A stretch of DNA of 53,769 nt from an uncultured Gemmatimonadaceae bacterium (GTDB taxonomy: Bacteria; Gemmatimonadota; Gemmatimonadetes; Gemmatimonadales; Gemmatimonadaceae): positions 1 through 53,769 of the forward strand of contig CBHWBX010000001.1 of the NCBI GenBank assembly GCA_966111935.1, in the 5' to 3' direction. The notes below the pieces were generated by a model. It had not been told where the DNA came from, did not search any database, and was given only the letters and a program-made list of their open reading frames with translations. Positions 1 to 39,109 of this stretch are shown here, piece by piece. Position numbers and translations under genes: made by a program. Position 1 is the stretch's first letter, and each line of letters opens with the position of its first letter.

Positions 1-2
1 TG

Positions 3-575
3 GCGCGGCATCCGACGGCAATCGTCGCCGCGTCGCGCGATGCCTCCGCGGCCATCGTCGTGCAGGAGGCGTTGAGCAGCGCGAGCTTCCGCGTGTACAC
101 CAGCGACGACGTGACGGGCGTCGAGCTCGGCGGCGCGCTCAAGAACGTCATGGCCGTCGCGACCGGGATCGTCGAGGGCGTGGGGCTCGGCTTCAACTCG
201 CGCGCGGCGCTGATCACGCGCGGCCTGCACGAGATGACGCGGCTCGGCGTCGCGCTCGGCGCGAATGCGACGACCTTCGCCGGTTTGGCCGGCGTCGGGG
301 ATCTCGTGCTCACGTGCACCGGCGGCTTGAGCCGCAACCGCGCGGTCGGCATCGAGATCGGGAAGGGGGCGTCGCTCGAGGCGGCGCTCGCCGGAAAGGA
401 GACCGTGGCCGAGGGCGTGACGACCACCGTGAGCGCGCTCGAGCTCGCGCGCACCCTCGATGTCGACATGCCGATCGTCGGAATGGCGCACCGCATTCTC
501 TTCGAGGGCCAGTCGGCTCGAGATGCCGTTCCCCAGCTGATGGCGCGCGAACTTCGAGCGGAGCAAGACCTGTGA
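3..575 (+). CDS. gpsA: glycerol-3-phosphate dehydrogenase [NAD(P)+], C-terminal part; 5' end outside the window
   Basis: Frame is open to the window edge. GVELGGALKNVMAVATGI and GDLVLTCTGGLSRNR are typical of the GpsA C-terminal domain. Stop TGA at 573-575. Confidence 0.9.
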   Translation, partial: ARHPTAIVAASRDASAAIVVQEALSSASFRVYTSDDVTGVELGGALKNVMAVATGIVEGVGLGFNSRAALITRGLHEMTRLGVALGANATTFAGLAGVGDLVLTCTGGLSRNRAVGIEIGKGASLEAALAGKETVAEGVTTTVSALELARTLDVDMPIVGMAHRILFEGQSARDAVPQLMARELRAEQDL

Positions 576-940
576 GCCCAGCGTCGGAGCCTGTCCAGGA
601 GTTCTTCTCGATCGGCGAGGTCTGCGACCTCACCGGCCTCAAGCCGCACGTGCTGCGCTACTGGGAGAGCCAGTTCCGTTTCCTGAGCCCGGCAAAGAAC
701 CGCTCGGGGAATCGCGTCTACCAACGGAAGGAGGTCGAGCTGATCATGCTCGTGAAGCACCTCCTGTACGAGGAGAAGTACACCATCGACGGCGCGCGCC
801 AGAAGGTCGACGAGCATCGGAAGGGCGGCGATCTGAAGGCGGTCGCGCGCGGGGCACTGACGGTGCAGGCGCTCGAGTCGCTGGAGTCGGAGCTGAAGGA
901 TCTCGTCGCGGGGCTCGAGGACACGGACATCAACGCGTAG
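572..940 (+). CDS. MerR-family transcriptional regulator
   Basis: HTH FSIGEVCDLTGLKPHVLRYWESQF followed by a coiled-coil tail. GTG at 572 overlaps the gpsA stop (GTGA). The 314-571 part of the tracked ORF is an Arg-rich alternative frame of gpsA. Confidence 0.8.
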   Translation: MSPASEPVQEFFSIGEVCDLTGLKPHVLRYWESQFRFLSPAKNRSGNRVYQRKEVELIMLVKHLLYEEKYTIDGARQKVDEHRKGGDLKAVARGALTVQALESLESELKDLVAGLEDTDINA

Positions 941-972
941 GACAGAGGTCCTTCGCTGCCGCTCAGGGTGAC

Positions 973-1734
973 ATGCGCTTTCTGATTACGAACGACGACG
1001 GAATTCTCGCGCAGGGGATCGAATGCCTGGCCGCGGCCGCTGAGCCGCTCGGTGAGGTGTTCGTCGTCGCGCCCGATCGCGAGCAGAGCGCGACGAGCCA
1101 TTCGCTGACGCTCCATCACCCGCTGCGTCCGGTAAAGCGCGGCGAGCGGAAGTGGCAGGTCGACGGAACGCCGACCGACTGCGTGATGCTCGCACTCGAG
1201 GCGCTGATGCCGGATCGGCCGGATTTCGTGCTGAGCGGCATCAATCACGGGCAGAACATGGGCGAGGACGTGCTCTACTCGGGCACCGTCGCGGCCGCCA
1301 TGGAAGGGCTCGCGCTGGGAATTCCGTCGATCGCCATTTCGTACGCCGGCGGCGACCTGCGAACGGACGTGAGCCGGTTGCAGGAACAAGTGAAGGTGCT
1401 CACGCCGATTCTCGCGCATCTCACGTCGCTTCCGCACTTCCCGCGCGATACGCTGCTCAACGTGAATCTTCCGCCGCGCACCGCCGACCAGGTGAAGGGC
1501 GTGAAGCTCACGCGCCTCGGACGCCGCGTGTACTCGCAGTCCGTCGCACCGATGAAGGATCCGTGGGGCCGTCAGATCTACTGGATCGGTGGGGGAGAGA
1601 TCTCGTGGAGCGGTGAGCCCGACTCCGATTTCCGCGCGATCGAAGAAGGCTATGTTTCCGTGACTCCGCTGCATCTGGACCTCACGCATTACCACGCGTT
1701 GGAAGGAGCAAATCGTTGGTGGCGCGACCTGTAG
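973..1734 (+). CDS. surE: 5'/3'-nucleotidase SurE
   Basis: MRFLITNDDG, DGTPTDCV, SGINHGQNMGEDVLYSGTVAAAMEG. Classic surE-pcm pairing. Confidence 0.93.
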   Translation: MRFLITNDDGILAQGIECLAAAAEPLGEVFVVAPDREQSATSHSLTLHHPLRPVKRGERKWQVDGTPTDCVMLALEALMPDRPDFVLSGINHGQNMGEDVLYSGTVAAAMEGLALGIPSIAISYAGGDLRTDVSRLQEQVKVLTPILAHLTSLPHFPRDTLLNVNLPPRTADQVKGVKLTRLGRRVYSQSVAPMKDPWGRQIYWIGGGEISWSGEPDSDFRAIEEGYVSVTPLHLDLTHYHALEGANRWWRDL

Positions 1735-2384
1735 ACAACGAGCTCCGCGGTGCGCGGCAGCGACTGATCGAGACGCTCCAGTCGAAGGGCATTCGCGACC
1801 TGTCCGTGCTGCGCGCGATCGAGATGACGCCGCGCCACGCCTTCGTCCCGACGGGGCTCCGCCATCGCGCCTATGAAGACGCGCCGCTGCCGATCGGCAA
1901 CGGCCAGACGATCTCGCAGCCGTGGGTGCACGCGCGCTATCTCGAGATCCTCCAGCTCACGGGAAAGGAACGCGTGCTCGAGATCGGCACGGGCTCCGGC
2001 TACCAGACGGTGCTGCTCGCGCATCTCGCATCGCAGGTCTTCTCGATCGAGCGGATTCCGGCGCTCCTCCAGCAGGCGCGCGACAACATCCGCCAGGCCG
2101 GCGTGAACAACGTCTCGGTGCTGCTCGGCGACGGGACGATCGGATGGCGCGAGTACGCGCCGTACGACGCGATTCTCGTCGGCGCCGGTTCGCCGTCGAT
2201 CCCTCAGCCGCTGCTCGACCAGCTCGCCGAAGGCGGACGTCTGCTCATTCCGATCGGCGATCGCGAGGAGCAGAAGCTCATCGTCGCCGAGCGGCGGGGC
2301 GGGCAGATCGTGAAGCGGGAGGAAGCGCCGGTGCGCTTCGTTCCGCTGATCGGCCATCACGGCTGGGACAAAGAGGGGAACTGA
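1716..2384 (+). CDS. pcm: protein-L-isoaspartate O-methyltransferase
   Basis: QTISQPWV and the SAM motif [12 protein letters not shown]. Overlaps the surE 3' end. The start is TTG 1716 or GTG 1719, so it is uncertain. Confidence 0.92.
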
Positions 2385-2653
2385 TGCGCCTTCACGCCGT
2401 GGTGCGCGGACGCGTGCAGGGCGTGGGCTTTCGCTGGTTCGTGCGCGAGACGGCAACGGCGCTCGGCCTCGCCGGACGCGTGCGGAACCGGTCGGACGGC
2501 ACCGTCGAAGTCGAGGCGGAAGGGGATGACGCCGCGATCGCCGACCTGCGACGCGAGCTTGCGAAAGGTCCGCGGGGCGCCGCCGTCGAAGCGGTCGACG
2601 AGCTCAGCCCGGGCGCGCAGCCGCTCGAACGTCCATTCTCGATCGAGAGGTAA
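2384..2653 (+). CDS. acyP: acylphosphatase
   Basis: [13 protein letters not shown] and [20 protein letters not shown] 2384 overlaps the pcm stop (TGATG). 89 aa. Confidence 0.85.
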
Positions 2654-2659
2654 CTCCGC

Positions 2660-3205
2660 ATGGCGACAGCGCAAAGCGCGAATCAGCTCGAGGAGCAGGT
2701 GAAGCGGCTGATTCGGGACATTCCCGACTATCCGAAGCCCGGGATCATCTTCAAGGACATCACGCCGCTGCTCGCCGACGCGCGCGGATTCGCGCAGGCG
2801 ACCGATGCGATGGCCGCGCCGTTCGCGAGCGCGGGCATCACCCACGTCGTCGCGATCGAGAGCCGGGGCTTCATCCTGGGCGGTCCGGTCGCGCAGCGAC
2901 TCGGGGCGGGGTTCATCCCGGTGCGGAAGCCGGGGAAGCTGCCGTCTGAAACGCGCCGGGAAGAATACGAGCTGGAATACGGCACCGACGCCCTCGAGAT
3001 CCACGCCGACGCCTGCGGGGACGGCGCGCGGGTTCTGATTGTCGACGACGTGCTGGCTACTGGCGGAACCGCCGCCGCGACGTGCAAGCTGGTGGAGTCG
3101 ATCGGCGCGACGGTTGTCGGGTTCTCGTTCCTTCTTACTCTGAGCTTCCTTCCGGGGCTCGAGCGCCTCAACGGGCGGCGGGTGGCGCGAGTAATCGAGT
3201 ATTGA
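2660..3205 (+). CDS. apt: adenine phosphoribosyltransferase
   Basis: FKDITPLL, ESRGFILG, and the PRPP motif VLIVDDVLATGGTA. Confidence 0.93.
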   Translation: MATAQSANQLEEQVKRLIRDIPDYPKPGIIFKDITPLLADARGFAQATDAMAAPFASAGITHVVAIESRGFILGGPVAQRLGAGFIPVRKPGKLPSETRREEYELEYGTDALEIHADACGDGARVLIVDDVLATGGTAAATCKLVESIGATVVGFSFLLTLSFLPGLERLNGRRVARVIEY

Positions 3206-3254
3206 CCGCGTATTGATCGCGTAATCGATCGTTTATTGATCGATTTATTGATCG
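3200..3254. promoter_or_regulatory. five direct TATTGATCG-like repeats with 11-12 bp phasing in the apt-dctA spacer
   Basis: Repeat starts at 3200, 3211, 3222 (variant TAATCGATC), 3234 and 3246. AT-rich island upstream of dctA. Each unit carries a GATC core or a near variant. Confidence 0.5.
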
Positions 3255-3327
3255 CTCCTCCCTTCGGCGCTGCGCACCTCCGGTCGGAGTGCCGCGGTTG
3301 AGAGTCATCCCCCTCCGCCACCCACGC

Positions 3328-4605
3328 ATGCGAAAAATCTATCGCAACCTCACCTTCCAGGTGCTCACGGCGATCCTGCTCGGCGCGCTGCTCGGCGCAC
3401 TCGCGCCGGACATCGGCCGGAAGATGAAGCCCGTCGGCGACACCTTCGTGAACCTCGTGAAGATGGTGATCGCGCCGGTGATCTTCCTGACGATCGTCAC
3501 GGGCATCGCGAGCATGCACGACCTGAAGAAGGTCGGGCGGGTCGGCGGGAAGGCGCTCCTCTATTTCGAGATCGTAACGACGTTCGCGCTCCTGATCGGG
3601 CTTGTCGTCGTGAACCTCTTCAAGCCGGGCGTCGGGCTGTCGACGGCGACGCTGGCGAAGGGGGACATCTCGTCGTTCGTGACGCAGGGGAAGGCGATGA
3701 ACTTCGCCGACTTCGTGACGCACATCGTGCCGTCGAGCATGTTCGACGCCTTCGCGAAGGGCGACGTCCTCCAGGTGGTGTTCGTCGCGGTGCTGTTCGG
3801 TGCGGCGCTGGCGATGCTCGGCGAGACCGGGCGACCGGTGCTCAACCTGCTCGAGCTGCTCTCGAAGGTCTTCTTCAAGATCGTCGGCATCGTGATGATC
3901 GTCGCGCCCCTCGGTGCGTTCGGCGCGATGGCTTATACCATCGGTGCGTTCGGCCTCTCGGCGCTCCTGCCGCTCGGGCGTTTGATGCTGTGCGTGTACA
4001 CGACGATGGCGGTGTTCATCTTCGTCGTGCTGAACCTGATCCTTCGCGCGTACGGCTTCAGTCTCTGGGAGTACCTGAAGTTCATCCGCGAAGAGATCCT
4101 GATCGTGCTCGGGACGTCGTCGTCGGAAGCGGCGCTGCCGCGGATGCTCGCGAAGATGGAGCGCTATGGCTGCCCGAAGCCGGTGGTCGGTCTGGTCATT
4201 CCGGCGGGGTACTCGTTCAACCTCGATGGCACGTCGATCTATCTCTCGATGGCGTCGATCTTCATCGCGCAGGCGTTCAACATTCACCTGAGCGTGGTGC
4301 AGCAGATCGAGCTGCTCGGCGTGCTGATGCTGACGTCGAAGGGGGCGGCCGGGGTGACCGGATCGGGCTTCATCGTGCTCGCGAGCACGCTCTCGGCGCT
4401 GCAGGTGATCCCGGTGGAAGGGGTGGCGCTTGTGCTGGGCGTCGACCGCTTCATGAGCGAGGCACGGTCAATCACGAACCTGATCGGGAACGGCGCGGCG
4501 ACCCTCGTGATCTCGCGGAGCGAGAGGGCGTTCGACGAGGAACAGCGCCGGCGCGCGGTGGACGAGGTCCACACGGAACGGGTGCTGGCGGCGAAGGCTG
4601 CCTAG
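3328..4605 (+). CDS. dctA: C4-dicarboxylate / amino acid:cation symporter (DAACS family)
   Basis: Near-collinear resemblance to E. coli DctA: YFEIV, LGTSSSE(A)ALPRM, GYSFNLDGTSIYL, SKGAAGVTGSGFIVLA, DRFMSEAR. Start chosen at the MRKIY Met, which is uncertain. Confidence 0.9.
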   Translation: MRKIYRNLTFQVLTAILLGALLGALAPDIGRKMKPVGDTFVNLVKMVIAPVIFLTIVTGIASMHDLKKVGRVGGKALLYFEIVTTFALLIGLVVVNLFKPGVGLSTATLAKGDISSFVTQGKAMNFADFVTHIVPSSMFDAFAKGDVLQVVFVAVLFGAALAMLGETGRPVLNLLELLSKVFFKIVGIVMIVAPLGAFGAMAYTIGAFGLSALLPLGRLMLCVYTTMAVFIFVVLNLILRAYGFSLWEYLKFIREEILIVLGTSSSEAALPRMLAKMERYGCPKPVVGLVIPAGYSFNLDGTSIYLSMASIFIAQAFNIHLSVVQQIELLGVLMLTSKGAAGVTGSGFIVLASTLSALQVIPVEGVALVLGVDRFMSEARSITNLIGNGAATLVISRSERAFDEEQRRRAVDEVHTERVLAAKAA

Positions 4606-4610
4606 GCGGC

Positions 4611-5498
4611 ATGAAGCGATACATCCTGACCCTGTGGGCAGCGCTCGCGTGCGCGTTGCCGCGTGTGGCGGCGGCGCACCCCGGCACGGGCATCGTCGTC
4701 GACCGCAAGGGAAACGTCTATTTCGTCGATATGGTCTCCGGCGTGTGGCGCGTCGATTCCGCCGGCGTGCTCACGCATGTCAACGGGCCTGCCTTTCACT
4801 GGCTGGCGCTCGACGAGAACGACCGTCTCGCGCGGGTGACGCTGCCATCGGGCACCTCGGGCGACATCGTCCGACTCGGCAACGCTCCGACGCTCCTGCT
4901 TGCGAGCGATGTTCCGGTCGCAACGCGGCGAGATGGGGCACTGTATTATCCGTCGCGGAGCGGGAATCGCCCGATCGACATCATTCGTCTGATGCCGAAC
5001 GGCCAGGCATCGACATTTGCTACACTGCCGGCTGGTCCGGTATCGCATCCGCTACGCTGGGTGAATGGACTCGCGGCGGCCGGCGACGGTTCGGTCTACT
5101 ATGCGGAAGACGCGGCGGTGCGGCGCATCGACGCCCGCGGCCGGCTCTCCACGCTCGCGGAGCGCATCGCTCCAACGAATTGCCGCTCCGTTCCCGGGAT
5201 TTCAGCGGCGGACGGCCCTTTGCTCCGTGGTCTGGTCGTCGATAGCGGGGGCGTCGTGTATGTCGCCGCCACCGGCTGCGCGAGCGTTCTGCGCATCCAT
5301 CCGAGTGGAAACATCCAGACGATCTATCGATCGGAGGGCGAGTGGTCGCCGACCGGTGTTGCTCAGCTCGGCTCGCGCATCTACGTGCTCGAGTTTCTCG
5401 GCGCCGGATCGGATGATCGTCAGGCGATGCTGCCGCGTGTTCGGGTGATCGAGCCGACCGGGACACGCGTCATTGCAACCGTTCATCGAGGGAAATGA
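4611..5498 (+). CDS. secreted beta-propeller (NHL/SMP-30-like repeat) protein
   Basis: Signal peptide MKRYILTLWAALACALPRVAAA. Repeated G-x-VY-V-D/A blades (GNVYFVD, GSVYYAED, GVVYVAA). The upstream part of the 3990 ORF is out of frame with dctA. Confidence 0.6.
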   Translation: MKRYILTLWAALACALPRVAAAHPGTGIVVDRKGNVYFVDMVSGVWRVDSAGVLTHVNGPAFHWLALDENDRLARVTLPSGTSGDIVRLGNAPTLLLASDVPVATRRDGALYYPSRSGNRPIDIIRLMPNGQASTFATLPAGPVSHPLRWVNGLAAAGDGSVYYAEDAAVRRIDARGRLSTLAERIAPTNCRSVPGISAADGPLLRGLVVDSGGVVYVAATGCASVLRIHPSGNIQTIYRSEGEWSPTGVAQLGSRIYVLEFLGAGSDDRQAMLPRVRVIEPTGTRVIATVHRGK

Positions 5499-5770
5499 TC
5501 TGGTCGTGCCGTATCAAGACGACCGGGGGCGGGAGCACCGGGCGCCCTTGCTACCGTGCAGAGCGAGATGGCGTTAGGTTCATGTGCTTGTACGCTGCCG
5601 CCTCCGGTACGGCAATCGTGCCGTGACGTACCGAGATTGTGGGGCAAACCTGGGGCAAGACCAGCCGAGAAATCGGCGGACTTGTCGGCACGTGCCGAGA
5701 AAGAACACGCCGTAGGCGACAAGTGCTAAGTTGTTGCAGTACAAGCTAATTCAAGAGTTGGCTATCACTT

Positions 5771-5844
5771 GCCCCTGTAGCTCAGATGGATAGAGCAGCG
5801 GTTTCCTAAACCGTTGGTCGCGTGTTCGACTCACGCCAGGGGCA
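5771..5844 (+). tRNA. tRNA-Arg (anticodon CCU)
   Basis: 74-nt cloverleaf folded by hand. Acceptor GCCCCTG/CAGGGGC, D arm GCTC-AGATGGATA-GAGC, anticodon arm GCGGT-TTCCTAA-ACCGT, T arm GCGTG-TTCGACT-CACGC, discriminator A. No CCA is encoded. Confidence 0.9.
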
Positions 5845-5887
5845 CCTTCGCAGTCGCCCTGATCAGCTTTTTCATTTCCGTCCTCCC

Positions 5888-6565
5888 ATGACCACTCCAA
5901 CCGTCACCAGCCAGCCGCAAGCCACGAAGTCCGCCGAGGATCACGCCCAGACCTTCCTCGACTGGACGAAGATCAACTCCAAGGCGCTGACCGCCGGGGC
6001 AGTGGTCGTGCTCGTCGCCGCGGGCGCGTTCTGGTTCTACCAGCGGTCGCAGCAGATCCAGGCCGCGAACGCCCAGAAGGCGCTGCTGAACGCGAAGCAG
6101 TCGCTGTCGGCCGGCAACCTCCAGCTGGCGCAGACGGACCTCCAGACCGTCTACTCGCGGTACGGCTCGACCGAAGCGGGCGTCGAGGCGGCGATGCTGC
6201 TGGCGCAGGTTCAGTACGACGCCGGCAAGCCGCAGGACGCGGTGACGATGCTGGACAAGGTCGCGGGCACGCGGGCGGCGTCGAGCGTCGAAGGGACGGT
6301 CCGGAGCCTCGAGGGCGACGGCTATGCCCAGATGGGCAAGCTGGCGGACGCGGCCAAGCAGTACGAGACGGCGGCGAACGCGACGACGCTCGAGAACGAA
6401 AAGGCGTTCTATCAGGGCAAAGCGGCGCGGACGTACCAGGCCGCCGGCGACACGGCCAAGGCGCGTCAGATCTGGCAGGCGCTGGCAGCGGCGCCGAACG
6501 GACCGCTGGCGGCCGAGGCGAAGGTGCGCCTGGGCGAGCTCGAGGCGACCGCGGTCAAGAAGTGA
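5888..6565 (+). CDS. membrane-anchored TPR protein (YfgM-like architecture)
   Basis: One N-terminal TM (LTAGAVVVLVAAGAFWFY) followed by Ala/Gln-rich TPR-like helices. ATG at 5888. Confidence 0.65.
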   Translation: MTTPTVTSQPQATKSAEDHAQTFLDWTKINSKALTAGAVVVLVAAGAFWFYQRSQQIQAANAQKALLNAKQSLSAGNLQLAQTDLQTVYSRYGSTEAGVEAAMLLAQVQYDAGKPQDAVTMLDKVAGTRAASSVEGTVRSLEGDGYAQMGKLADAAKQYETAANATTLENEKAFYQGKAARTYQAAGDTAKARQIWQALAAAPNGPLAAEAKVRLGELEATAVKK

Positions 6566-6641
6566 TCGCTGGTGGCTCGGCGTTCGACGGTCGAGTCTGA
6601 TTTTGAACGGTTGGAACTGCGAGGACGCAGCGCTAGCAGAG

Positions 6642-6683
6642 GGCCGCAGAGGACACCGGGAACGGTGAAATCTGCGGCCTTTT
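6642..6683 (+). terminator. rho-independent terminator after the TPR gene
   Basis: GGCCGCAGA (6642-6650) pairs with TCTGCGGCC (6671-6679). Inner stem CACCG/CGGTG. Followed by TTTT at 6680-6683. Confidence 0.6.
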
Positions 6684-6763
6684 CGTGCCCCCGACCGCCA
6701 TTGCAGAATGACGACAGAGTGCCGCCATCATCGAATGTCGGGTTGGTGTCGCGTTCAATATGT

Positions 6764-6793
6764 AGTACGTATAAGATGTATCTTATCCACCAT
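6764..6793. other. host-phage junction (attL-like); putative dif/cer-like recombination site
   Basis: AGTACGTATAA-GATGTATC-TTATCCACCAT. Contains the palindrome ATAAGAT-GT-ATCTTAT (6771-6786). Identity with the phage-phage junction starts at 6770. Confidence 0.3.
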
Positions 6794-6852
6794 CGCGACA
6801 CCAACATGAGTCATCTCTGATTGGTGTTCTGTCATAACCCCTGTCGCGAGCA

Positions 6853-7176
6853 TCACGCGGCAACCCCCGTGTTCGGCAGTTTGGCGAATTCCGCGTCGCA
6901 GTGGCGACAGCGGCCCAGCGTCTGGATCAGCTTCGGCGAGAGCGCGACGCGACGGATCGCGGGCGGGATGCGCTCGCCACACAGCGCGCGCTCTTCCTCG
7001 TAGACGGCCACGCCGACGCGGTGCACCAGGCTCAGGTCATCGGTGCGGCCGAAGCGGACTTCCGACCACGCGACGCTGTGCCCGAGTTCCAGCGGGGCGT
7101 CAGCAATCGCCAGCGCGTCCTTGCGGGCGCTTTCTTCGATCTCGCGGAGCGAGTTCCAGCGTTCGTGCTCTCTCAT
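6853..7176 (-). CDS. hypothetical protein (107 aa) with a C-terminal Cys pair
   Basis: ATGA coupling to the upstream gene at 7173-7176. C..(n)..CRHC motif. Last gene before the unit boundary. Confidence 0.55.
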   Translation of the reverse strand: MREHERWNSLREIEESARKDALAIADAPLELGHSVAWSEVRFGRTDDLSLVHRVGVAVYEEERALCGERIPPAIRRVALSPKLIQTLGRCRHCDAEFAKLPNTGVAA

Positions 7177-7409
7177 TCTTCGTCCCTCACGAGCTGAATC
7201 TTCGGGTTCAGCAGCGCTTCACGCGCTGCGGTCCAATCGGTCTGCGCGGTGCGACTCGCCTCGACAATCGCGCTCACCGCGGTCCTGAGTTGCTTGTCCT
7301 GCTCGCACCAGTAGTCCACCAGAGACTGCGCGGCCTGTCGGCCCTCGGGTGCGAGTTGCTGCTCAATCGCGAAGCGGATCGCGGTCACGATGATGTCCCG
7401 CTGCGTCAC
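7173..7409 (-). CDS. hypothetical protein (78 aa)
   Basis: GTG 7409 overlaps the XRE gene stop (GTGA). The N-terminal part of the tracked 7173..7532 ORF looks non-coding. Confidence 0.55.
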   Translation of the reverse strand: MTQRDIIVTAIRFAIEQQLAPEGRQAAQSLVDYWCEQDKQLRTAVSAIVEASRTAQTDWTAAREALLNPKIQLVRDEE

Positions 7410-7972
7410 TCGCGCTCGGCCCGCATCAACTCCAAGCGGAGCTGGTGGCTCGTCGCCATCGCACGGAGTGTCGTGGCCATCAGGCGTCGGAAGTCCTCCG
7501 AATCGGCGTGCTCGACTCCGTTCGCGATCCACCGCAGCGCGTCGGGCGTGTGCCAGAATGAGCCGAGAACCGCCATCGTTACCGGATCTGCTTCGGTCGC
7601 CGCCTCGCCGGCGTCTCCAGTCCCGTAGTGCAGTTCCTTCGGGGACATGCGGAGCTTGTCGGCAATGGCGATGATGTCCGATTGGCGCGGCATAAAGGCG
7701 CCCTGCCTCCAGCGCGAGACGGTGTTGTACGAAACGCCGACCGCCCGAGCGAGTTCGATATTGGACACCTTCTCTCGCTTCATCGCAGCGACCAGCCGCG
7801 CACCGAAAGACGGCACCGACGGACTCTTACCGTCCGGCTCCTCGCGCTCTTGCCCTCGCGGCTCAGCGATTCGATGCGAAGCCGACGAGTGCTCGTCCGC
7901 ATCTAGAGGCGCCCTCATGGGCGTGGGATTGGTGCCGCCCTTGGTGTATTCGTGCCAGTGGCGTTCGCTCAT
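7406..7972 (-). CDS. XRE-family HTH regulator with a C-terminal domain (188 aa)
   Basis: HTH FGARLVAAMKREKVSNIELARAVGVSYNTVSRWRQG. The MSERHW start overlaps the upstream stop (ATGA at 7969-7972). Confidence 0.8.
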   Translation of the reverse strand: MSERHWHEYTKGGTNPTPMRAPLDADEHSSASHRIAEPRGQEREEPDGKSPSVPSFGARLVAAMKREKVSNIELARAVGVSYNTVSRWRQGAFMPRQSDIIAIADKLRMSPKELHYGTGDAGEAATEADPVTMAVLGSFWHTPDALRWIANGVEHADSEDFRRLMATTLRAMATSHQLRLELMRAERE

Positions 7973-8157
7973 TCGCTCGCCTCCGCAACGCGCAACAGGC
8001 GTTGCATCGTCGCGCGCTCGTTCGACTGCTCGCGGTGCGCGTTCGTGATGTGAAGAACCACCGCGACGAGATTGGCGATCGCCGCAGGCCAGTAGCCCCG
8101 CGACGCGCACGCGCCTGCCACCGCCGCGTTGACTGCGACTCCAATGCAGTACCACAT
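7969..8157 (-). CDS. small hydrophobic protein (62 aa)
   Basis: MWYCIGVAVNAAVAGACASRGYWPAAIANLVAVVL suggests two TM-like segments. Coupled to the XRE gene. Confidence 0.5.
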   Translation of the reverse strand: MWYCIGVAVNAAVAGACASRGYWPAAIANLVAVVLHITNAHREQSNERATMQRLLRVAEASE

Positions 8158-8163
8158 GGCTAT

Positions 8164-8547
8164 TCACTTGCCTCCGCGGTGGGCGGGGTGGAGCGAGCGG
8201 CGTCGGCGCGATGATCCTCGACGGCCTTCGCGGCGATCTTGAAGGCCGAGTTCTCGTCCTTCCCGTCGAAGCGCGAATGCGGCGCTATAGACTTCGAGGA
8301 TCTGACCGATGACCGTTTCGCGATCCGGCATCTCGTCCTCTCGGGACTCGACCGACGAGAGGGGAGCGGGCTGATGAGCGACGCGAAGCGCGGCGAGCAC
8401 GCTGCGAATGTGCGTCGCGGTCACGTCGCAGTGCCGGATCGCCATGATGAGCGATTCACCGTTTGCGTCGCGCCATTTCAGCATTTTCTCGAGCGCGAGC
8501 ACGGCGCCGCCGACTTCGCGCGGCGTCAGTTCGGTTGTATCGCTCAC
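8164..8547 (-). CDS. hypothetical protein (127 aa)
   Basis: GTG 8547 overlaps the upstream stop (GTGA). Protein-like composition. Confidence 0.5.
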
Positions 8548-15798: not shown

Positions 15799-16628
15799 AC
15801 CGGTCCCCGCTCGGGTTTGAATTGGATTTTCTCGACCTCGTAAGCGCCGGCGTCGATCGTCACGAGCACGCCACCGATCCCCGCCATCGAATCAGCCGCG
15901 ACCTTGTGCACATGACTCGTCGCGAGCTGCCACGCGCCCGAGGTCACGACGCGCGTGGGACAGGCGTCGTAGCTGTCGTTGAAGCGGTGGTGATGTCCGC
16001 GCAAGCAGAGGTCCGGATGCCGGTCCCCGTCCTTCGCGTGGCTCAGGAAGATGTCGTGCGCATGGAGCACCGCGGCCGAGCCTCGGGTATGTTCGCGCTG
16101 CCCCGTGCGGCCGTGATGCGTGATGTCCACGCGAACGCCCTGCATCTCACCGCGAAAGTGCCACCAGCTCGCCGTGCGCGTCTCGGGGTCACTGATGACC
16201 GGGCGCTTGTCCCGCCGCAGGCCGTCCGCAATGCGCTCCTCGGCGCTCGCGCTCTGGCCGACATGCGCTTCGGTGCCGCGAACGACCAGGATCCGGTCCG
16301 GCTTCAAGGCCAGCGGGATCGCCATGCAGGCGGTGACGACGGCCGCTTGCGCGTTCGGGTTCTCAGAGATGATCTGCGTCGTGCGGTGGTGCGCGCCTTC
16401 GACGAGATCGCCGTTGAACACGGCGTAGAGATCCGCATGCAGCTCGCGCCGCTTCGCTTCGGCTTTCGCCCAATACTGTTCCCAGCACTGGAACAGCCAG
16501 CGCTGGGGCTTCGAGGCGTGGTACTCGCCGCCATCATCGTAGGAAACCGATGCAGGGCACAGGGCCGTCGTCCCGCCCGCGTGGATGTCGGACACGTGGG
16601 CCAGAACGACGGGTCGGGTCCGGCCCAC
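15786..16628 (-). CDS. calcineurin-like metallophosphoesterase
   Basis: Motifs HVSDIHAG, NGDLVEG, RGTEAHV, ITHHG, GHHHRF in the canonical order. Confidence 0.75.
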   Translation of the reverse strand: MGRTRPVVLAHVSDIHAGGTTALCPASVSYDDGGEYHASKPQRWLFQCWEQYWAKAEAKRRELHADLYAVFNGDLVEGAHHRTTQIISENPNAQAAVVTACMAIPLALKPDRILVVRGTEAHVGQSASAEERIADGLRRDKRPVISDPETRTASWWHFRGEMQGVRVDITHHGRTGQREHTRGSAAVLHAHDIFLSHAKDGDRHPDLCLRGHHHRFNDSYDACPTRVVTSGAWQLATSHVHKVAADSMAGIGGVLVTIDAGAYEVEKIQFKPERGPVWKL

Positions 16629-16841: not shown

Positions 16842-17345
16842 TCAGTCGATCGCGTGGAGCTCGCGCCAAACAGCCTGCACACCACCACTCGCGAGCAGCG
16901 CGGCGGCGTGGTCGGACGGGGAGACGTGCATGCCGTTGCAGTACCACTGGACATGCGGCTTGTCCTGCATCTTCCATTGCCCGCCCCACGTCAGCCCGCG
17001 GCGCAGACAGACGTCGCCGAGATCGCGGAAAAACTGGGCGAGCTCGCTGCCACTCGGGTAGCGCTTGTCGCCGATGTCGACGGCGAGGCCGTAGTGGTGC
17101 CAGGTCTTGAGGGCGTTCGGGGCGTTCGTCACGATGCCGCGCCCATCGTCGTAGGCGCGACCGAAGCCGTAGAGCCACGCCGCGCGTTCGGTCGAGCGAA
17201 CGGTCTCGCGCAACACGGGACGCCACCCGAGCGCGTCGAGGTCGAAGAGCACGGACGCAATCGCGGCGCGGAACTTCGGCGCGAGGCCATCCGTGCTCGA
17301 GATGACGGACGGCTCATGGGGCGCGGGCGGAAGTTTCGCGCTCAT
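16842..17345 (-). CDS. endolysin, peptidase M15 (VanY/L-Ala-D-Glu peptidase-like)
   Basis: WHHYGLAVDI (H-x6-D) and DKPHVQW zinc-ligand motifs. Lysis-cassette position. Confidence 0.75.
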   Translation of the reverse strand: MSAKLPPAPHEPSVISSTDGLAPKFRAAIASVLFDLDALGWRPVLRETVRSTERAAWLYGFGRAYDDGRGIVTNAPNALKTWHHYGLAVDIGDKRYPSGSELAQFFRDLGDVCLRRGLTWGGQWKMQDKPHVQWYCNGMHVSPSDHAAALLASGGVQAVWRELHAID

Positions 17346-17854: not shown

Positions 17855-19756
17855 TTACGCGGCCGTGACGGTGCCGGCGATGCCGGTGCCGTCGACGTAC
17901 ATCTGACACAGGTTCGTGTTGCCCGCGCCCGCGCCGTTGCCGCACGTGTAGGTGATCACCACCGACGAACCGGAGTAGGTCGCGACGAAGTCGCCCGTCG
18001 CGACCTGGAAGTTGCCGGTGCTCCCGTTCAGCAACGCGGTTGCCGTCATGCCGCCGAGTGAGAACCCGTCGCCAGCGTGAGCAATGTCGAGCTTGAGCAA
18101 CGCGCGCAGGTTCGCACTGCCCTCGAAGTAGACTTCGACGAACACTTTCAGCAGCGACGGCTGGCTGTTCAGGACCGGGATCGTCGTCACCATCGTCCCG
18201 CTGCGTAAAATCCCCGTCTTCGTCACCACCTGCGGCCAGCCCGCGCCGGTGCGGTAGTTCAGGTTCGACTTCGTGCGCCAGTGCGCGCCGCTCGTGAGGA
18301 TCGGGTCCTTCGCCGAGCTCGACACGTACATCGTGAGATCGACCGCGCCGCAGTTGCTGGTCATCTCGACGGTGTTGGTGCGCGCCGTGAGATCGCCGCC
18401 GTCGACGACGGCGTGCGACACGCGATCCAGAATCAGCGCCGACTTGCCGGACAGGTTGTTCGATCCGGCGAGTACGCGCGGGTGAGTCACGGACACCGTC
18501 GTGGTCGTCGCATTCGCGTCGCTGCCAAGCCACATGTCGGCGTCGCCGTTGTCTTCGAAGTACGGGTCGGTCAGCGAGATCGCGCCGTAGCGGCCACGAA
18601 AGCCGTATGCGCCCGTCTGCGTTCCGCCAGAACCGGCCGACTCGGACGTCAACCCGAAGAAGTCGATCGAGAGGCCCGCGACGTCGAAGTTCGGACCCGC
18701 CTGACACGCGCTGAAGTACACCTGCTCGCCGCGGACCGTGGTCGAGATGCTGGCCGGACTACCGATGTAGAGCCCGGCGTCGCCCTTGCACTCCGCACCG
18801 CGTACGTGATTCAGCGTAATGCCGACCGCATCCTCGATGTGCAGGAGATGGCCGCCCGCCTGATTCAGCGACACATTCTCAGCGACGAAGTCGACGACAC
18901 CGTACGTCGCGACGAGGTGTCGGCAGGACTTCGCCGTGTCGGTGAAGTCGAGCGTCGTGGCCTTGATGTCGCGGATGGCCCCGCCGTAGCCGAAGCCCGA
19001 CGCTTGGACGTACCCGCTCGCGTTCCGGTCCCAGGTCAGCGCGTCGACCGTGTTCGCGAGCTTGAACACGAGGACCGTTGTCCAGAGCCCGTCGCCTTCG
19101 ATCGTCACCCCGGGATAGCAGGTCATGGCCGAGGTACAGAGATAGGTGCCCGCCGGGAAATAGATCGAGGCGCCATACCGCCGCTTGTACCCGGAGCCCG
19201 CCACAATCGCATTGGCCGCAGCCACGGCGGCGAGGATCGCGGTGGTGTCGGCCGTCACCCCATCGTCGCCGGCGCCTGTGGCGCCCCACCACTGCGGGAA
19301 AATCTTGTCGGGGCGCCACGTGCCGAACCGGATGGACCCGCCCGCCGACGGATCGAAGCACTGCGCGAGCGGCACCGCCAGCGGAGCGTTCAGCGTGATC
19401 GTGACCCCGCTCGCCGGTTTGAGCTTGGCGCCCAGCGCGAGCAGGATGGGGCTCGTGATAGTGAGGTTCGACGAGATCAGGTAGGTGCCAGGCGGCACGT
19501 AGAGAAAGCCGCTGGTACCGCACGCCGTCTGCGCAGCGACGAACGCATGCCGATCGTCCGTGAGGCCCGTGCCCACGGCGCCATAGGACGGCGCCAGGAC
19601 GTTGTAGGCGCCATGGCCGACGAACGACGATTCGAGGATGTATTCCGCGAGGTCGTCCGGGCTGAATAGCAACTCGTTCGAGTTGTCCAGATCGAGCGCA
19701 TTCGCCCAGAGCGCGCCGAAGCGATGGGCACTCGTGAGAGGATTGCGCAGCGTCAT
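17855..19756 (-). CDS. tailspike with pectate-lyase-like beta-helix (putative depolymerase), 633 aa
   Basis: Two Pectate_lyase_3-like heads (YGAVGTGLTDDRHAF..YVPPGTYLI and WGATGAGDDGVTADTTAI..IYFPAGTYL). Last structural gene. Confidence 0.75.
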   Translation of the reverse strand: MTLRNPLTSAHRFGALWANALDLDNSNELLFSPDDLAEYILESSFVGHGAYNVLAPSYGAVGTGLTDDRHAFVAAQTACGTSGFLYVPPGTYLISSNLTITSPILLALGAKLKPASGVTITLNAPLAVPLAQCFDPSAGGSIRFGTWRPDKIFPQWWGATGAGDDGVTADTTAILAAVAAANAIVAGSGYKRRYGASIYFPAGTYLCTSAMTCYPGVTIEGDGLWTTVLVFKLANTVDALTWDRNASGYVQASGFGYGGAIRDIKATTLDFTDTAKSCRHLVATYGVVDFVAENVSLNQAGGHLLHIEDAVGITLNHVRGAECKGDAGLYIGSPASISTTVRGEQVYFSACQAGPNFDVAGLSIDFFGLTSESAGSGGTQTGAYGFRGRYGAISLTDPYFEDNGDADMWLGSDANATTTTVSVTHPRVLAGSNNLSGKSALILDRVSHAVVDGGDLTARTNTVEMTSNCGAVDLTMYVSSSAKDPILTSGAHWRTKSNLNYRTGAGWPQVVTKTGILRSGTMVTTIPVLNSQPSLLKVFVEVYFEGSANLRALLKLDIAHAGDGFSLGGMTATALLNGSTGNFQVATGDFVATYSGSSVVITYTCGNGAGAGNTNLCQMYVDGTGIAGTVTAA

Positions 19757-21303: not shown

Positions 21304-21954
21304 TTACCAGCCCGCCGACGTCGTGCGGGAGTCGAGCCGCGAGAGCTTCGCGGCGACCGAGACGCCCTTAGAATCCGCCGTGCTGGCGTTGACCGACCCG
21401 GCAAGAGCCTTCGAGTCGGCCGCGCTCGTGTTGATCGATCCCGAGAGCGCGCGACTGTCCGCCTTCGACGTAGTGCTCGATCCGGAGACGACCTTGCTCA
21501 GCGCCACGCTGCCGTTGAGCGAGACCGAGAGCGCTTTCGAGTCCGCGACGCTGCCCGCGCTGCCGCTGCTCACGGCTTTGGAATCCGCCGTGCTGGCGAG
21601 CGTCGATACGCTGAGCGCCTTTGAGTCGGCGACGCTGGCGCGCGTGCTGGCGCTCACGCCTTTCGAGTCCGCGACGCTCGTGTCGGTCGACGCGACCGTG
21701 ACCGTCGAGAGGGCGGCCGAGGTGTTCACCCCGTTCGACACGCCTTTCGAATCCGCGACGCTGTCCGCCGTCCCCGCGCTCGTCGCCCTGCTGCTGGTGA
21801 TCGAAACGTTGAGGGAGACGGAGAGCGCCTTGGAGTCGGCGACGGCCGGCGGCAGGTTCTGGGCACGGGACAGCGCGGTACTCAGCGCGGCGCCGTGCGA
21901 GGTCGCTTTGGAATCCGCGACGGAAATGGCGAGTGATCGGGCCTGTGCACCCAT
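21304..21954 (-). CDS. Ser/Thr/Ala-rich fibrous protein with ADSK-x-S repeats (fibre paralogue 1)
   Basis: Repeating ..S.ADSKA.S.S.. units of about 14 aa. C-terminus SRTTSAGW. Confidence 0.65.
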   Translation of the reverse strand: MGAQARSLAISVADSKATSHGAALSTALSRAQNLPPAVADSKALSVSLNVSITSSRATSAGTADSVADSKGVSNGVNTSAALSTVTVASTDTSVADSKGVSASTRASVADSKALSVSTLASTADSKAVSSGSAGSVADSKALSVSLNGSVALSKVVSGSSTTSKADSRALSGSINTSAADSKALAGSVNASTADSKGVSVAAKLSRLDSRTTSAGW

Positions 21955-21967: not shown

Positions 21968-22642
21968 TTACTTGCCGGCAGAGGTGAGACGCGAATCGAT
22001 GTTCGACGCCTTCGTGGCGACCGACGTGGCCTTGGAGTCGGCGGTCGAGACGTTCGTCGACACGCTCCCTGTCTTCGAGTCAGCGATGCTGGTGTTGACC
22101 GAGACCGAGAGGGCCTTGGAGTCGGCGGCGCTGGTGTTCGTCGAGACCGACAGCGCCTTTGAGTCGGTCGCGCTGGTATTGGTCGACGTCGACACGGCCT
22201 TCGAGTCGGCGACGCTCGCCGCGCTCCCGGCGCTCGTGCCCTTCGAGTCGGCGGTACTGGTGAGCGTGCTCACCGACAGCGCCTTGGAGTCCGCCGTGCT
22301 CGCGCGGGTCGTGGCCGATGTGGCCTTGGAATCCGACGTCGTGACGTTCGACGTCACCGAGACGGCGGCACTGGCGGCGCTCGATCCACTGGCCGATGAC
22401 GACACGGCCTTCGAGTCGGCGGTGCTCGCCGCAGTGCCCGCGCTCACGCCCTTGGAATCGGCGGTACTGGTGAGCGTCGAGACGGAGAGGGCTTTCGAGT
22501 CGGCCGTCGATGCGGCGGCAGAGCCGACCGATGCCGCACTCGTTGCCGTCGAGGTTGCAGTGGAGAGGGTCGTCGACGCTGCCGTGGCAGCAGAGGCGGC
22601 CTTGGAGTCCGCTTTCGAGGCGGAATTCGAGAGAATGGACAT
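21968..22642 (-). CDS. Ser/Thr/Ala-rich fibrous protein with 14-residue ADSK repeats (fibre paralogue 2)
   Basis: At least 11 units such as TADSKALSVSTLTS. C-terminus SRLTSAGK parallels paralogue 1. Confidence 0.65.
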   Translation of the reverse strand: MSILSNSASKADSKAASAATAASTTLSTATSTATSAASVGSAAASTADSKALSVSTLTSTADSKGVSAGTAASTADSKAVSSSASGSSAASAAVSVTSNVTTSDSKATSATTRASTADSKALSVSTLTSTADSKGTSAGSAASVADSKAVSTSTNTSATDSKALSVSTNTSAADSKALSVSVNTSIADSKTGSVSTNVSTADSKATSVATKASNIDSRLTSAGK

Positions 22643-31915: not shown

Positions 31916-32881
31916 TTACGTGTTCGGCGTGAGATCGACGGCCACGCCTTCGGCCTTCTCGTTCTTCACGCGGAGGCCCCACTCGGCGATCAGCATGCGC
32001 TTCTCGGCGTCGCCGGTCTTGGCGAGCGGCACCTGCTTGAACGGCCGCAGGTAGTCGACCGAGATGTAGTCCCAGTCGAGCACGAACATCGTGCTGGTCC
32101 GCTGGAAGCGGTTCGGCACCACCGTGAGCGTGCCGAAGTCCGAGACGTAGGCGTCCGCGGCGCCGATGATCTGCGCCGGGCCGGTCTTCGTCTGCTGCTT
32201 CGTGAGCTCGACGACGCCGTTGAACGTCGAGATCTGCTGCTTGCCGAGCGCGCCGACCATGATCGTCGTCGGCTGGGCGCCGTTCGTCCAGCACTGCTGG
32301 ATGACGTCCTTGAGGATCGTCTCCGTCAGCGTGCGGGCGGTGCCGTCCGTCCAGACGTCCGTCGGGATGTTGGTGTAGACCGGCGCCGTGCCGTCGTTCG
32401 CCTTGCTGATGTTCGTCTTGAGGAAGGCGAGCAGCTTGCCCGTGACACGCGCCGCTGACGTCGAGCCCGCGACCGCGCCCTTGTTCGAGCAGATCGCCGC
32501 CTCCATGTCGCGCTTCATCTCCTTGCCCTTCTTCGCGAGCTGGTAGGCGATTTCCGAGTTGCGGCCCGCCTTGTCGACGACCTCCTCGGTGTCGGAGATG
32601 ATCAGCGTCTTGCGGGTGATCTCGGTGTAGTTGCCGAGGCGAACCGTCGGCGTCACCGCGTCGAAGGCCGTGACGTCGTCACCTTCGATCTGCTGGTTCG
32701 TGGTCGACGCCGTGGCGAGGGCGTCGGTCTGCCACTCGAAGAACGTCTGGTCGGCCTTGCCACGGCCGGCGTTGTTGAGGACCGGGGTGTCGGTCGGGGA
32801 GATGTTGTAGATGATGTCCGAGAGGTCTTCCCGGACGGCCACCGCATCGAAGCGGGTAAACGTATTCGCAATCGCAGACAT
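31916..32881 (-). CDS. major capsid protein (HK97 fold, SU10/DUF5309-like)
   Basis: REDLSDIIYNISPTDTPVL..FEWQTD N-terminal signature. 321 aa. Follows the scaffold gene. Confidence 0.8.
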   Translation of the reverse strand: MSAIANTFTRFDAVAVREDLSDIIYNISPTDTPVLNNAGRGKADQTFFEWQTDALATASTTNQQIEGDDVTAFDAVTPTVRLGNYTEITRKTLIISDTEEVVDKAGRNSEIAYQLAKKGKEMKRDMEAAICSNKGAVAGSTSAARVTGKLLAFLKTNISKANDGTAPVYTNIPTDVWTDGTARTLTETILKDVIQQCWTNGAQPTTIMVGALGKQQISTFNGVVELTKQQTKTGPAQIIGAADAYVSDFGTLTVVPNRFQRTSTMFVLDWDYISVDYLRPFKQVPLAKTGDAEKRMLIAEWGLRVKNEKAEGVAVDLTPNT

Positions 32882-32946
32882 AATCGGTTCCTCGCCGCCC
32901 GCGTGGGGCGTCGATGACAGGGTTCAGATTGTTGGGTGAGTCGTGC

Positions 32947-34005
32947 TTAGAGGCGGGTCAGGATCGCCGCGGCGGCATCTTCGACGCGCCCGGTCTTCTG
33001 GAGACGCGCCATCGCCTGTTCGCCCTTCGAGGCCTTGGGCTGATTCGCCTTGGAGCCGCCGGGGGCGGTCGTGGCGATGGCCTTCTCGATCTTCGTCTTG
33101 ATCGCCGGCGCCTTGCTCTGCGCGTCGCGATAGCGCATCGCGTCGCGGAGCAGGAGGACTAGCCGATGATCGGCGACGCCGGTCAATTCCTCGTCGGAGA
33201 ACCCCCGTTCCTTGGCGAACGCGCTCAGCGCCTTGCCAAGCTCCGGGGCCTTCGTGGGATCGCCGAAGTCCGGGTCTGCCTCGATGAGCTTCGCGCGCTG
33301 CGCGTCGACGTGCGCGCTGTAGCCCTTCTTCGCGTCCTCGGCCTGCTGCGCTTCGACGCGGGCGCGCTCTTCCCGAATGGCCGTGACGCGCTTCTGCGTG
33401 TCGTCCCATTCGTCGCGCTTCGCCACGTACTCGTCGGGGCTCACCTGAGCCCGAAGGATGGCCCAATCGGGTTCCTTCGGATGAAACAGCGTGATCGCCT
33501 CTTCGAGTTTCGTCAGCGTCTGCCGGTACTGCTCGCGTTCCTGCCGCACCGCGGCGACTTCGGTCTCTTCGAAGCTCTTCCGAGCCTGCGCGAGCGCCAT
33601 CGTCTTCCGCGTGTAGTCCTGCGTCCGCGAGTAGCCCCGCACCAACTCGTCTTCGGGCACCTGCTCGTCCTTGCCGTCGATCTTGACGGTGAACAGGCGC
33701 GGTGCCGACGTGTCGGACGGCTCGTCGGTGCCTTCGGTAGTGCTGTCGGCCGGCTCGCTCTCGCGCGAGGGATCCTGCTCCTCGGCGGTCGCGGCCGGCG
33801 CCTGCTCGGCGGCGGGAGACTCCTGCGTGTCGCTCGTCTCGCTGGTGCTGCTCGTCTCCGGCCGCTGCTCCGGCTGGCGGGTCGACGGCTCCGCTGTATC
33901 GCGCGTGTTGTCGCGCGAGAGGAGGCCGAGGATCGCCTGCGATGCGCCCGAAACGCTTCCGTCGTGTGACGAAGTGGCGGATTCGGGCGCGATCGATGTG
34001 CTCAT
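32947..34005 (-). CDS. scaffolding protein
   Basis: Acidic, low-complexity N-terminus and a long coiled coil. Lies between the portal and capsid genes. Confidence 0.65.
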   Translation of the reverse strand: MSTSIAPESATSSHDGSVSGASQAILGLLSRDNTRDTAEPSTRQPEQRPETSSTSETSDTQESPAAEQAPAATAEEQDPSRESEPADSTTEGTDEPSDTSAPRLFTVKIDGKDEQVPEDELVRGYSRTQDYTRKTMALAQARKSFEETEVAAVRQEREQYRQTLTKLEEAITLFHPKEPDWAILRAQVSPDEYVAKRDEWDDTQKRVTAIREERARVEAQQAEDAKKGYSAHVDAQRAKLIEADPDFGDPTKAPELGKALSAFAKERGFSDEELTGVADHRLVLLLRDAMRYRDAQSKAPAIKTKIEKAIATTAPGGSKANQPKASKGEQAMARLQKTGRVEDAAAAILTRL

Positions 34006-34011
34006 AGGGCA

Positions 34012-34320
34012 TTACTCCTGGCTGGCAGGGCGCTGGGCCTCGGCGGCGCGCTCTTCCGCGCGCTCGCGTTTCTGGCGTTCGAGGGCCTCGCGTTCCCCTG
34101 CGGAAATCACGGTGCGCAGTTGGTGCATGACATCGTCGAGCACCAAGCTTTTTGCCTGCGCGCGCTGGAGCTGCTCGGGCGTACTCGCCCGCTTGAAATC
34201 GTCGTAGTGCTGCTGCTCGACCAGTTTGAGGATCACCCCGCCCACCGGACTGTCGAGCAAATCGCGAAAGCGCTGGCAATCGCGGATGACTTGATCGACC
34301 GGGAAGAGGTCGAGGCTCAC
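34012..34320 (-). CDS. hypothetical protein (102 aa)
   Basis: ATGA-type overlap with the portal stop. Helical and charged. Confidence 0.5.
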   Translation of the reverse strand: MSLDLFPVDQVIRDCQRFRDLLDSPVGGVILKLVEQQHYDDFKRASTPEQLQRAQAKSLVLDDVMHQLRTVISAGEREALERQKRERAEERAAEAQRPASQE

Positions 34321-36578: not shown

Positions 36579-36586
36579 CGGAATCC

Positions 36587-38436: not shown

Positions 38437-38440
38437 TGTC

Positions 38441-38875: not shown

Positions 38876-38911
38876 ACGCTCAGACTCTCAGGACCTAAGT
38901 GAACCACAGGT

Positions 38912-38923
38912 GAAAAATTTTTC
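38912..38923. promoter_or_regulatory. AT-rich perfect palindrome GAAAAATTTTTC upstream of gene 38441..38875
   Basis: Read directly. Conspicuous in GC-rich DNA. Lies in the 234-bp terS-downstream gap. Confidence 0.35.
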
Positions 38924-39109
38924 CGACCCTACCGACACCCGGCGATGAGGAACAGCGAGCCCGCAGGGTACCTGCCCGCTCCACCGGCCCGGCCCTCCGT
39001 CGAGCAGGGGGGGGGCTTTCGCCGATCCGACCCTGAGCCCCACGACCCCAGATCGGCTACTCGCCCGGCTGCGCATCGTCCCAGGTTTACAGAATGCAGC
39101 TTGTGCGTA

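Follow-up and report, generated by a model that had tools for sequence, protein, structure and literature searches.

The window, by which we mean the whole stretch of DNA analysed here, is one whole contig of 53,769 bp. Bases 1-6769 are chromosomal and encode gpsA, a MerR regulator, surE, pcm, apt, a dicarboxylate symporter, a tRNA-Arg and a TPR_21 protein, and a phage unit of 44,742 bp begins at 6770 (Table 1). From 51512 to the window end, the sequence is an exact copy of 6770-9027, with the identity between the two copies beginning precisely at 6770/51512. The initial annotation had described a host-phage and a phage-phage junction, and both were recovered as described (6764-6793, AGTACGTATAAGATGTATCTTATCCACCAT; 51506-51535, AGTGCATATAAGATGTATCTTATCCACCAT), as was the palindrome ATAAGAT-GT-ATCTTAT at 6771-6786, a 7-bp inverted repeat around GT. 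The second copy had also been taken as a sign of a tandem array. The attP-type phage-phage joint behind this proposal stands, but the array is only one of two readings: since the contig ends within the second copy, the joint proves an attP-type junction and not by itself a chromosomal tandem array. A single prophage and excised circular forms merged by the assembler would yield an identical contig, and the joint is attP either way. The contig terminus lies inside a GC-rich tandem repeat of the second phage copy, which probably broke the assembly; the repeat encodes part of a phage protein with a long (D/A)AAWAAA(R) tandem repeat (8762-9535, minus strand, and 53500-53769).

Table 1. Coordinates of the main features in the window.
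Feature	Position	Strand	Remarks
tRNA-Arg(CCT)	5771-5846	+	Syntenic in L161-L163
TPR_21 protein	5888-6565	+	Syntenic in L161-L163
attL, hybrid site	6764-6791	+	Matches to the L162 dif: XerC arm 11/11, centre 6/6
attL, host XerC arm	6764-6774		AGTACGTATAA
attL, centre	6775-6780		GATGTA
attL, phage degenerate XerD side	6781-6791		TCTTATCCACC
Phage unit, one copy	6770-51511	-	Nearly all genes on the minus strand
107-aa protein	6853-7176	-	Conserved His/Cys residues; last gene before attP
HTH_3 (Cro/CI-type) regulator	7406-7900	-	0.6 kb from attP
Small HTH gene	12734-13015	-	Divergent from the CI-like repressor gene; AT-rich island at 13040
CI-like HTH repressor	13068-13439	+
Acyltransferase_3	14076-15317	+	Pfam
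Endolysin (M15)	16842-17345	-	Pfam/PHROGs
Tailspike, pectate-lyase fold	17855-19756	-	Pfam/PHROGs
Packaging and head module	31916-39763	-
Major capsid	31916-32881	-	Pfam/PHROGs
Scaffold	32947-34005	-	Pfam/PHROGs
Portal	34317-36578	-	Pfam/PHROGs
TerL	37015-38436	-	Pfam/PHROGs
TerS (Sf6-like)	39110-39763	-	Pfam/PHROGs
Replication module	47064-48943	-
DnaB-like helicase	47064-48191	-
DnaD-like loader	48140-48943	-
129-aa protein	50919-51308	-	First gene across attP
attP region, non-coding	51373-51651	.	Six GCGACA/TGTCGC hexamers
attP-type joint, phage right end/left end	51506-51533	+	AGTGCATATAA-GATGTA-TCTTATCCACC
Second phage copy, start of (identical)	51512-53769	-	0 mismatches over 2258 bp

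The phage gene map, based on GC3-guided calls with Pfam and PHROGs searches of the 64 called phage ORFs, contains no gap larger than 470 bp. Terminase, portal, HK97-type capsid, tailspike, lysis, replication and immunity genes are all present in one unit, along with genes for other virion proteins, and further early genes encode a methyltransferase, HNH nucleases, a LuxR/sigma-like regulator, a DUF5131 protein and a Gp157 protein (Pfam/PHROGs). The CI-like repressor and the divergent small HTH gene likely form the immunity switch, and the acyltransferase is likely a lysogenic-conversion gene. The portal shares approximately 40% identity with its counterpart in Sinorhizobium phage phiM5 and approximately 32% with those of Pseudomonas podoviruses such as UFV-P2 and NV1. 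A near-identity search of GenBank phages revealed no close DNA relative, and three proteins of the window, looked up by exact sequence, had no recorded match. Judging from its gene content, the element appears to be a complete tailed phage (Caudoviricetes), temperate and podovirus-like. It also carries a tRNA-like gene (11533-11607, minus strand; 42 bits to the Rfam tRNA model), to which ARAGORN did not assign an anticodon, and two neighbouring genes for Ser/Ala/Thr-rich proteins with ADSKA(L/V)S-type repeats (21304-21954 and 21968-22642, minus strand), located between the tail genes and a cluster of glycosyltransferase-like and hexapeptide transferase genes.

The prophage had initially been described as lacking a recognisable integrase, and profile searches for the tyrosine, serine and DDE families likewise found none in or beside the element. 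At a threshold of E<=0.05, Pfam and PHROGs yielded no integrase, resolvase or DDE transposase among the 64 called phage ORFs, 10 alternative ORFs from weakly called regions and the ORFs of the host flank. The same called, alternative and host-flank ORFs include no FtsK-gamma homologue, and no ORF had a XafT/DUF3653 match at E<=0.05. Two other modes of integration were considered and rejected. A Mu-like transposable phage is contradicted by the lack of a transposase, by the phage-phage joint and by the site-specific junction, and the PHROG 'Mu Gam-like' match corresponds to Pfam Sipho_Gp157. Integration into the tRNA-Arg gene does not fit a junction that lies 920 bp downstream, beyond a conserved host gene.

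The host dif and the crossover interval

With the TPR protein as query, we retrieved three Gemmatimonadaceae MAG loci (L161, L162 and L163), which share the gene order gpsA-surE-pcm-apt-tRNA-Arg-TPR with the window. All three contain an empty site, namely an uninterrupted 28-mer, AGT(A/T)CGTATAA-GATGTA-TTATGTAAACT, located 100-270 bp after the TPR gene and syntenic with the window junction. The 28-mer has exactly the same XerD arm as the B. subtilis dif and the dif predicted for Gemmatimonas aurantiaca, and its centre and XerD arm recurred in six unrelated contigs in a metagenome scan. The G. aurantiaca site, AATGCGTATAATACATGTTATGTAAACT, was predicted in strain T-27 of the type species of the phylum (PMC3025954). 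Furthermore, the left flank of the window aligns with the flank upstream of the L162 site. Based on the identity of the XerD arm, the recurrence in six metagenome contigs and this flank alignment, the 28-mer reads as a canonical, bona fide host dif. The GC skew of the 10-kb flanks of L161-L163 displays no clear switch at the 10-kb scale, so that the location of the terminus rests on the sequence of the site and its conservation only.

The phage insertion splits this dif: the host XerC arm (11/11) and the centre (6/6) are followed by phage DNA. The initial annotation had suggested looking for an empty site in related genomes and had named a host dif lying elsewhere, with an unrelated sequence, as evidence against its proposal; the intact 28-bp dif occupies the syntenic place in L161-L163, exactly at the insertion point. 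Since the junction coincides with a host dif defined by three relatives, it is no chance AT-rich island. The junction sites had previously been compared with the E. coli dif, and the counts given (8/11 for the XerC arm in each left arm, 6/11 for the XerD arm) are correct, but the E. coli arms are the wrong yardstick, the relevant reference being the dif of Gemmatimonadaceae. The terminator placed before the junction was found as a terminator-like hairpin, GGCCGCAGA...TCTGCGGCC, followed by TTTTCG, at approximately 6642-6684.

When aligned with the host dif in a 6-bp register, the phage attP matches 9 of 11 positions of the XerC arm, all 6 of the centre and 5 of 11 on the XerD side. The crossover interval common to dif and attP is TATAAGATGTAT, a 12-bp identity that includes both borders of the centre. 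XerC and XerD cleave at the borders of the central region, and the observed attL, as far as can be judged from its sequence, is exactly the product expected of a Xer crossover. The 8-bp, cer-like centre proposed initially is disfavoured by the relatives, in which the 6-bp register prevails: the host dif and the attPs of the family share the 6-bp GATGTA centre, TTAT at the 8-bp spacing is peculiar to the phage of the window, and in two related phages (L180 and L181) the XerD-arm bases GTAAAC stand where the 6-bp register places them, which argues against an 8-bp centre. The attP architecture is that of the TLCphi/GGI type of Xer-exploiting sites.

Several further features were observed around the junction. 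A perfect 12-bp inverted repeat spans it, with one half in the host (GTTGGTGTCGCG, 6742-6753) and the other in the phage (CGCGACACCAAC, 6794-6805). The phage half lies within the conserved attP frame described below, whereas L162 retains the host half only in part; a TGTCGC-like motif is also found upstream of dif in L161 and L162. We treat the perfect match of the repeat across attL as partly fortuitous; it may reflect mimicry, a relic or chance. Downstream of the host dif, the relatives contain a conserved element of approximately 120 bp (L161, 10795-10915; L162, 10940-11060; L163, 10854-10975), with a GGGGAAA motif, a hairpin (CTGTGGAGAAC..GTTCTCCACAG) and the terminus GGCTATATCTCTGAAAGT; in the genome of the window, this element would lie beyond attR. 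Compared with L162 and L163, the window contains an extra 2.4 kb between apt and tRNA-Arg (3289-5770), consisting of an SDF-family symporter gene and approximately 1.1 kb devoid of a convincing ORF or Pfam match.

A conserved module at the attachment site

Seven further attP variants were identified in other metagenomes (L175-178, L179, L180, L181, L170/171, L185 and L186). In 6 of the 6 lineages with a readable gene, the dif-like site lies, in the same orientation, 3' of a gene of the same family as that of the 107-aa protein. The distance from gene to site is approximately 90-100 bp, except for approximately 400 bp in L170/171, where an HNH gene has been inserted. In L170, whose helicase is the most similar to that of the window (79% identity), the 107-aa-family gene and the site are separated by a gene for an HNH_3 endonuclease (6970-7608), and the XerC arm of the site is weakened (GGTTCGTGTAA). 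The lineage L185 was found in IMG/VR by means of a pattern derived from the conserved frame; its contig is cut 97 nt from the site, apparently inside the end of the 107-aa-family gene, and the 54-kb IMG/VR contig behind it has no terminal repeat. The exact attP 22-mer had no match in IMG/VR. The 107-aa protein matched no Pfam or PHROG family, and the AlphaFold2 model of the protein and its family reached a pLDDT of 59, too poor for a fold search. Its homologues in contigs from other samples are 43-60% identical, and a profile search of IMG/VR detected none.

Across the eight variants, including the window, the XerC arms match at 8-10 of 11 positions, the centres at 5-6 of 6 and the XerD sides at 3-7 of 11, with the window falling within these ranges. 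In an alignment of five lineages (A1), the XerC arm and the centre are nearly invariant and the XerD side has no invariant column (0/11), a pattern that points to selection on the XerC arm and the centre only. The retention of a dif mimic in eight phage lineages marks it as a conserved module and no accident.

The site is also embedded in an array of short motifs. GCGACA/TGTCGC occurs 6 times within 300 bp at the attP of the window, against 0.34 expected, and is also present in 6795-6850; within 150 bp of every attP in the family it is enriched 6- to 18-fold, with clusters around the sites of L175, L179, L180, L185 and L186 as well. Two of the hexamers make up a conserved inverted frame, CGGTGTC...GCGACAC, which brackets the 28-mer and is represented in the window by GGTGTC (51492) and GACACC (51539). 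The hexamers may be binding sites for an accessory protein, and the 107-aa protein is a candidate recombination accessory factor.

The 129-aa gene across attP shows no specific linkage to the dif-like site in relatives, and no dif-like site was found in the DNA fetched for the helicase relatives L173 and L174 or for the 129-aa-gene relatives L182 and L184. The last of these encodes a 569-aa large serine recombinase (6701-8410). Its ready recovery in the equivalent early region demonstrates that such genes are detectable in this phage group and suggests that, within the group, the integrase module and the dif mimic are two alternative means to the same end. L184 additionally carries an IS605 OrfB/TnpB-like gene (14012-15088). 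A complete canonical dif-like 28-mer, ACTGCGTATAA-TATACA-TTATGTAAACC, is present at positions 697-724, directly after terS, in two IMG/VR podophage contigs (L082/L087) with a 71% identical capsid, which may represent another Xer-using tailed phage with attP elsewhere in the genome.

Probable integration by the host Xer recombinases

The locus shows the hallmarks of an IMEX: insertion in the host dif, a dif-like attP with a pairing centre and no own integrase or transposase found. Xer-mediated integration of the TLC/GGI type at the host dif is the best explanation for this integrase-less tailed prophage, and we consider it likely. The core idea of the initial annotation, Xer-dependent lysogeny at a dif-like site, is supported by dif as the insertion point, by the crossover interval, by the absence of a recognisable recombinase and by the conserved mimic, all of which are established here together with the site identities.

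From these observations we infer as follows which enzymes act, in what order the strands are exchanged and what part the accessory gene and motifs play. The XerC and XerD of the host would bring attP and the chromosomal dif together in a synapse and exchange strands at both edges of the centre common to the two sites. On the left, this would produce an attL composed of the host XerC arm, the centre and the degenerate phage arm, as seen at 6764-6791. On the right, the predicted attR would combine the phage XerC arm, the centre and the host XerD arm into a working dif, AGTGCATATAAGATGTATTATGTAAACT, outside the contig, with a joint in which GGTGTCACCACGTAAGTGCATATAAGATGTA is directly followed by TTATGTAAACT and then by the conserved host element. 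The contig does not carry xerC, xerD or ftsK of the host either. As dif would be regenerated on the right, a second copy could integrate there, giving the attP-type joint at 51506. The centre being fully homologous, both strand pairs could be exchanged, as in TLCphi and GGI, and in principle the reaction would run both ways. A phage factor replacing FtsK and/or the missing XerD arm would set its direction, the candidates being the conserved 107-aa protein beside attP and the GCGACA/TGTCGC array framing the site. In the circular form, gene order suggests an early leftward operon running from the immunity region through attP into the replication genes. Because this operon crosses attP, integration would part the immunity region from the replication genes, and a tandem copy or excision would restore the link.

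A search of metagenomes for the predicted attR returned six matches, all of which are dif variants of other taxa. The locus L165 was considered as a possible attR of a relative and rejected, as its 170-bp flank has no significant similarity to phage right ends. Between the host flank on the left of dif and the phage right end there is weak similarity (z <= 3.9), for which a relic or the capture of attP from the host flank was considered.

The dif-like site could instead serve mainly for multimer resolution, in the manner of cer or psi, in a phage that is maintained as a circular plasmid or a replicative form, with integration at dif as an occasional by-product. Xer sites with accessory sequences serve plasmid dimer resolution (PMC9226527, PMC5357621), and here, too, attP is flanked by an array of repeated motifs, the contigs of the seven other lineages are in the phage-phage (attP) configuration, and the related L082/L087 carry a complete dif-like site inside the phage. 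We nevertheless regard this reading as quite improbable. Genes for partition or plasmid maintenance did not emerge from the Pfam and PHROGs searches of the phage ORFs; the degenerate XerD arm sets the site apart from cer and psi and resembles that of TLCphi and GGI; the centre is an exact copy of that of the host dif, a feature that is relevant to recombination with the chromosome but not to recombination between two copies of the phage; and in the window the phage is integrated and has a CI-like immunity region and a conversion gene. One role does not preclude the other.

About equally improbable, in our view, is a phage-encoded, unrecognised site-specific recombinase that targets the dif region of the host, with Xer not being the catalyst. 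Candidates would have to be sought among the unassigned phage proteins, which include a 373-aa ORF (42043-43164), a 280-aa ORF (15786-16628) and the two proteins encoded next to attP (107 aa and 129 aa). A dedicated enzyme, or one of its subunits, would likewise account for the conserved linkage between the 107-aa gene and the site. However, a length of 107 aa is too small for any known recombinase catalytic domain, no tyrosine, serine or DDE family was matched at E<=0.05, and integrase-carrying relatives were recognised at once. Moreover, the conserved part of attP consists of the XerC arm and the host dif centre, as binding and cleavage by the host Xer proteins require, and a private integrase would have no need to copy half of dif. 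Finally, that the host-phage joint is an assembly chimera or the outcome of illegitimate recombination in an AT-rich stretch is very improbable: the contig is metagenome-style, ends in a repeat and traverses the phage sequence twice, but the joint falls within a 12-bp identity too short to mislead a k-mer assembler, it lies precisely in the host dif core, where Xer exchange is expected, and its phage side is a dif mimic conserved in eight lineages, three independent features the coincidence of which is not credible as an artefact.

Beyond Xer-mediated integration as such, we tentatively propose that in a lineage of Gemmatimonadota tailed phages the integrase module may have been replaced by a TLC/GGI-like dif mimic and a new accessory system, comprising the 107-aa His/Cys protein and the GCGACA array, which would recruit or activate XerCD independently of FtsK or a XerD arm. 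If so, the phages would be the first IMEXs among Caudoviricetes and would solve, in a second and unrelated way, the problem handled by XafT in TLCphi.

Comparison with known Xer-exploiting elements and temperate podoviruses

The general assumption is that a tailed phage either depends on an integrase or transposase of its own or persists as a plasmid, and the integrase serves as a marker in prophage finders and lifestyle predictors. Xer-exploiting integration has been described mostly in Proteobacteria, and gokushoviruses also use it. In full-text searches of the literature accessible without subscription, we found no report of a Caudoviricetes IMEX and none of an IMEX in Gemmatimonadota. The IMEXs recovered by these searches are inoviruses, TLCphi, double jelly-roll (DJR) phages and genomic islands only (PMC12715192, PMC9226527, PMC5357621), and a 2025 survey contrasts non-tailed phages of the dif type with integrase-encoding tailed phages (PMC12715192). 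Judged against these reports, the class of mechanism is known; what appears to be new is the kind of element, the phylum of its host and the accessory module. If the proposed integration is true, the need of tailed phages for an own integrase, a transposase or a plasmid state is not universal, some virome calls of the type "integrase-less, therefore virulent" are wrong, and, in a soil phylum that has received little study, dif is a hot spot for large viral insertions. The attP module, with a small gene, half a dif and a motif array in eight lineages, offers a testable route to a new mechanism of Xer activation.

The closest parallel in site architecture is TLCphi, a satellite phage of Vibrio cholerae, which likewise combines a good XerC arm and the very centre of the host dif with a strongly divergent XerD arm; the latter deviates at 8 of 11 bp in TLCphi and at 6 of 11 here (PMC9226527, PMC5357621). 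Integration of TLCphi regenerates dif on one side and allows arrays (PMC9226527, PMC5357621), and Xer-exploiting elements build arrays by repeated integration (PMC12715192, PMC9226527). However, TLCphi is a small satellite of a filamentous phage, whereas the present element is a 44.7-kb tailed dsDNA phage in Gemmatimonadota, and TLCphi encodes the XerD activator XafT, whereas here no XafT/DUF3653 homologue was found and the site is accompanied by a different conserved neighbour, the 107-aa protein, and by the GCGACA array. The GGI of Neisseria is comparable in being a large dsDNA element (57 kb), and its difGGI site has a homologous XerC arm and centre and a divergent XerD arm (PMC5357621). 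Unlike the phage described here, GGI is a type IV secretion island, for which FtsK-dependent integration is described, and has no virion, lysis or immunity genes.

The inoviruses CTXphi and VGJphi and the dif-type DJR vibriophages are also integrase-less, use XerCD at dif and are frequently found in tandem arrays, and their attP is flanked by a repressor gene and a small accessory gene, rstR/xafT or p16/p15 (PMC12715192). These phages are non-tailed, and sizes below 16 kb are described for tailless and filamentous prophages of Vibrio (PMC11630473). In the CTX and VGJ types, exchange is XerC-only because the centre is non-homologous on the XerD side, whereas here the centre is identical at 6 of 6 positions. 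Conversely, integrase-encoding temperate podoviruses with P22-like or Sf6-like packaging resemble the phage of the window in their virion and packaging genes, in the tailspike gene beside a conversion acyltransferase and in the CI/Cro-type switch, but use their own tyrosine or serine integrase; none was found in the phage of the window, the attP of which mimics dif.
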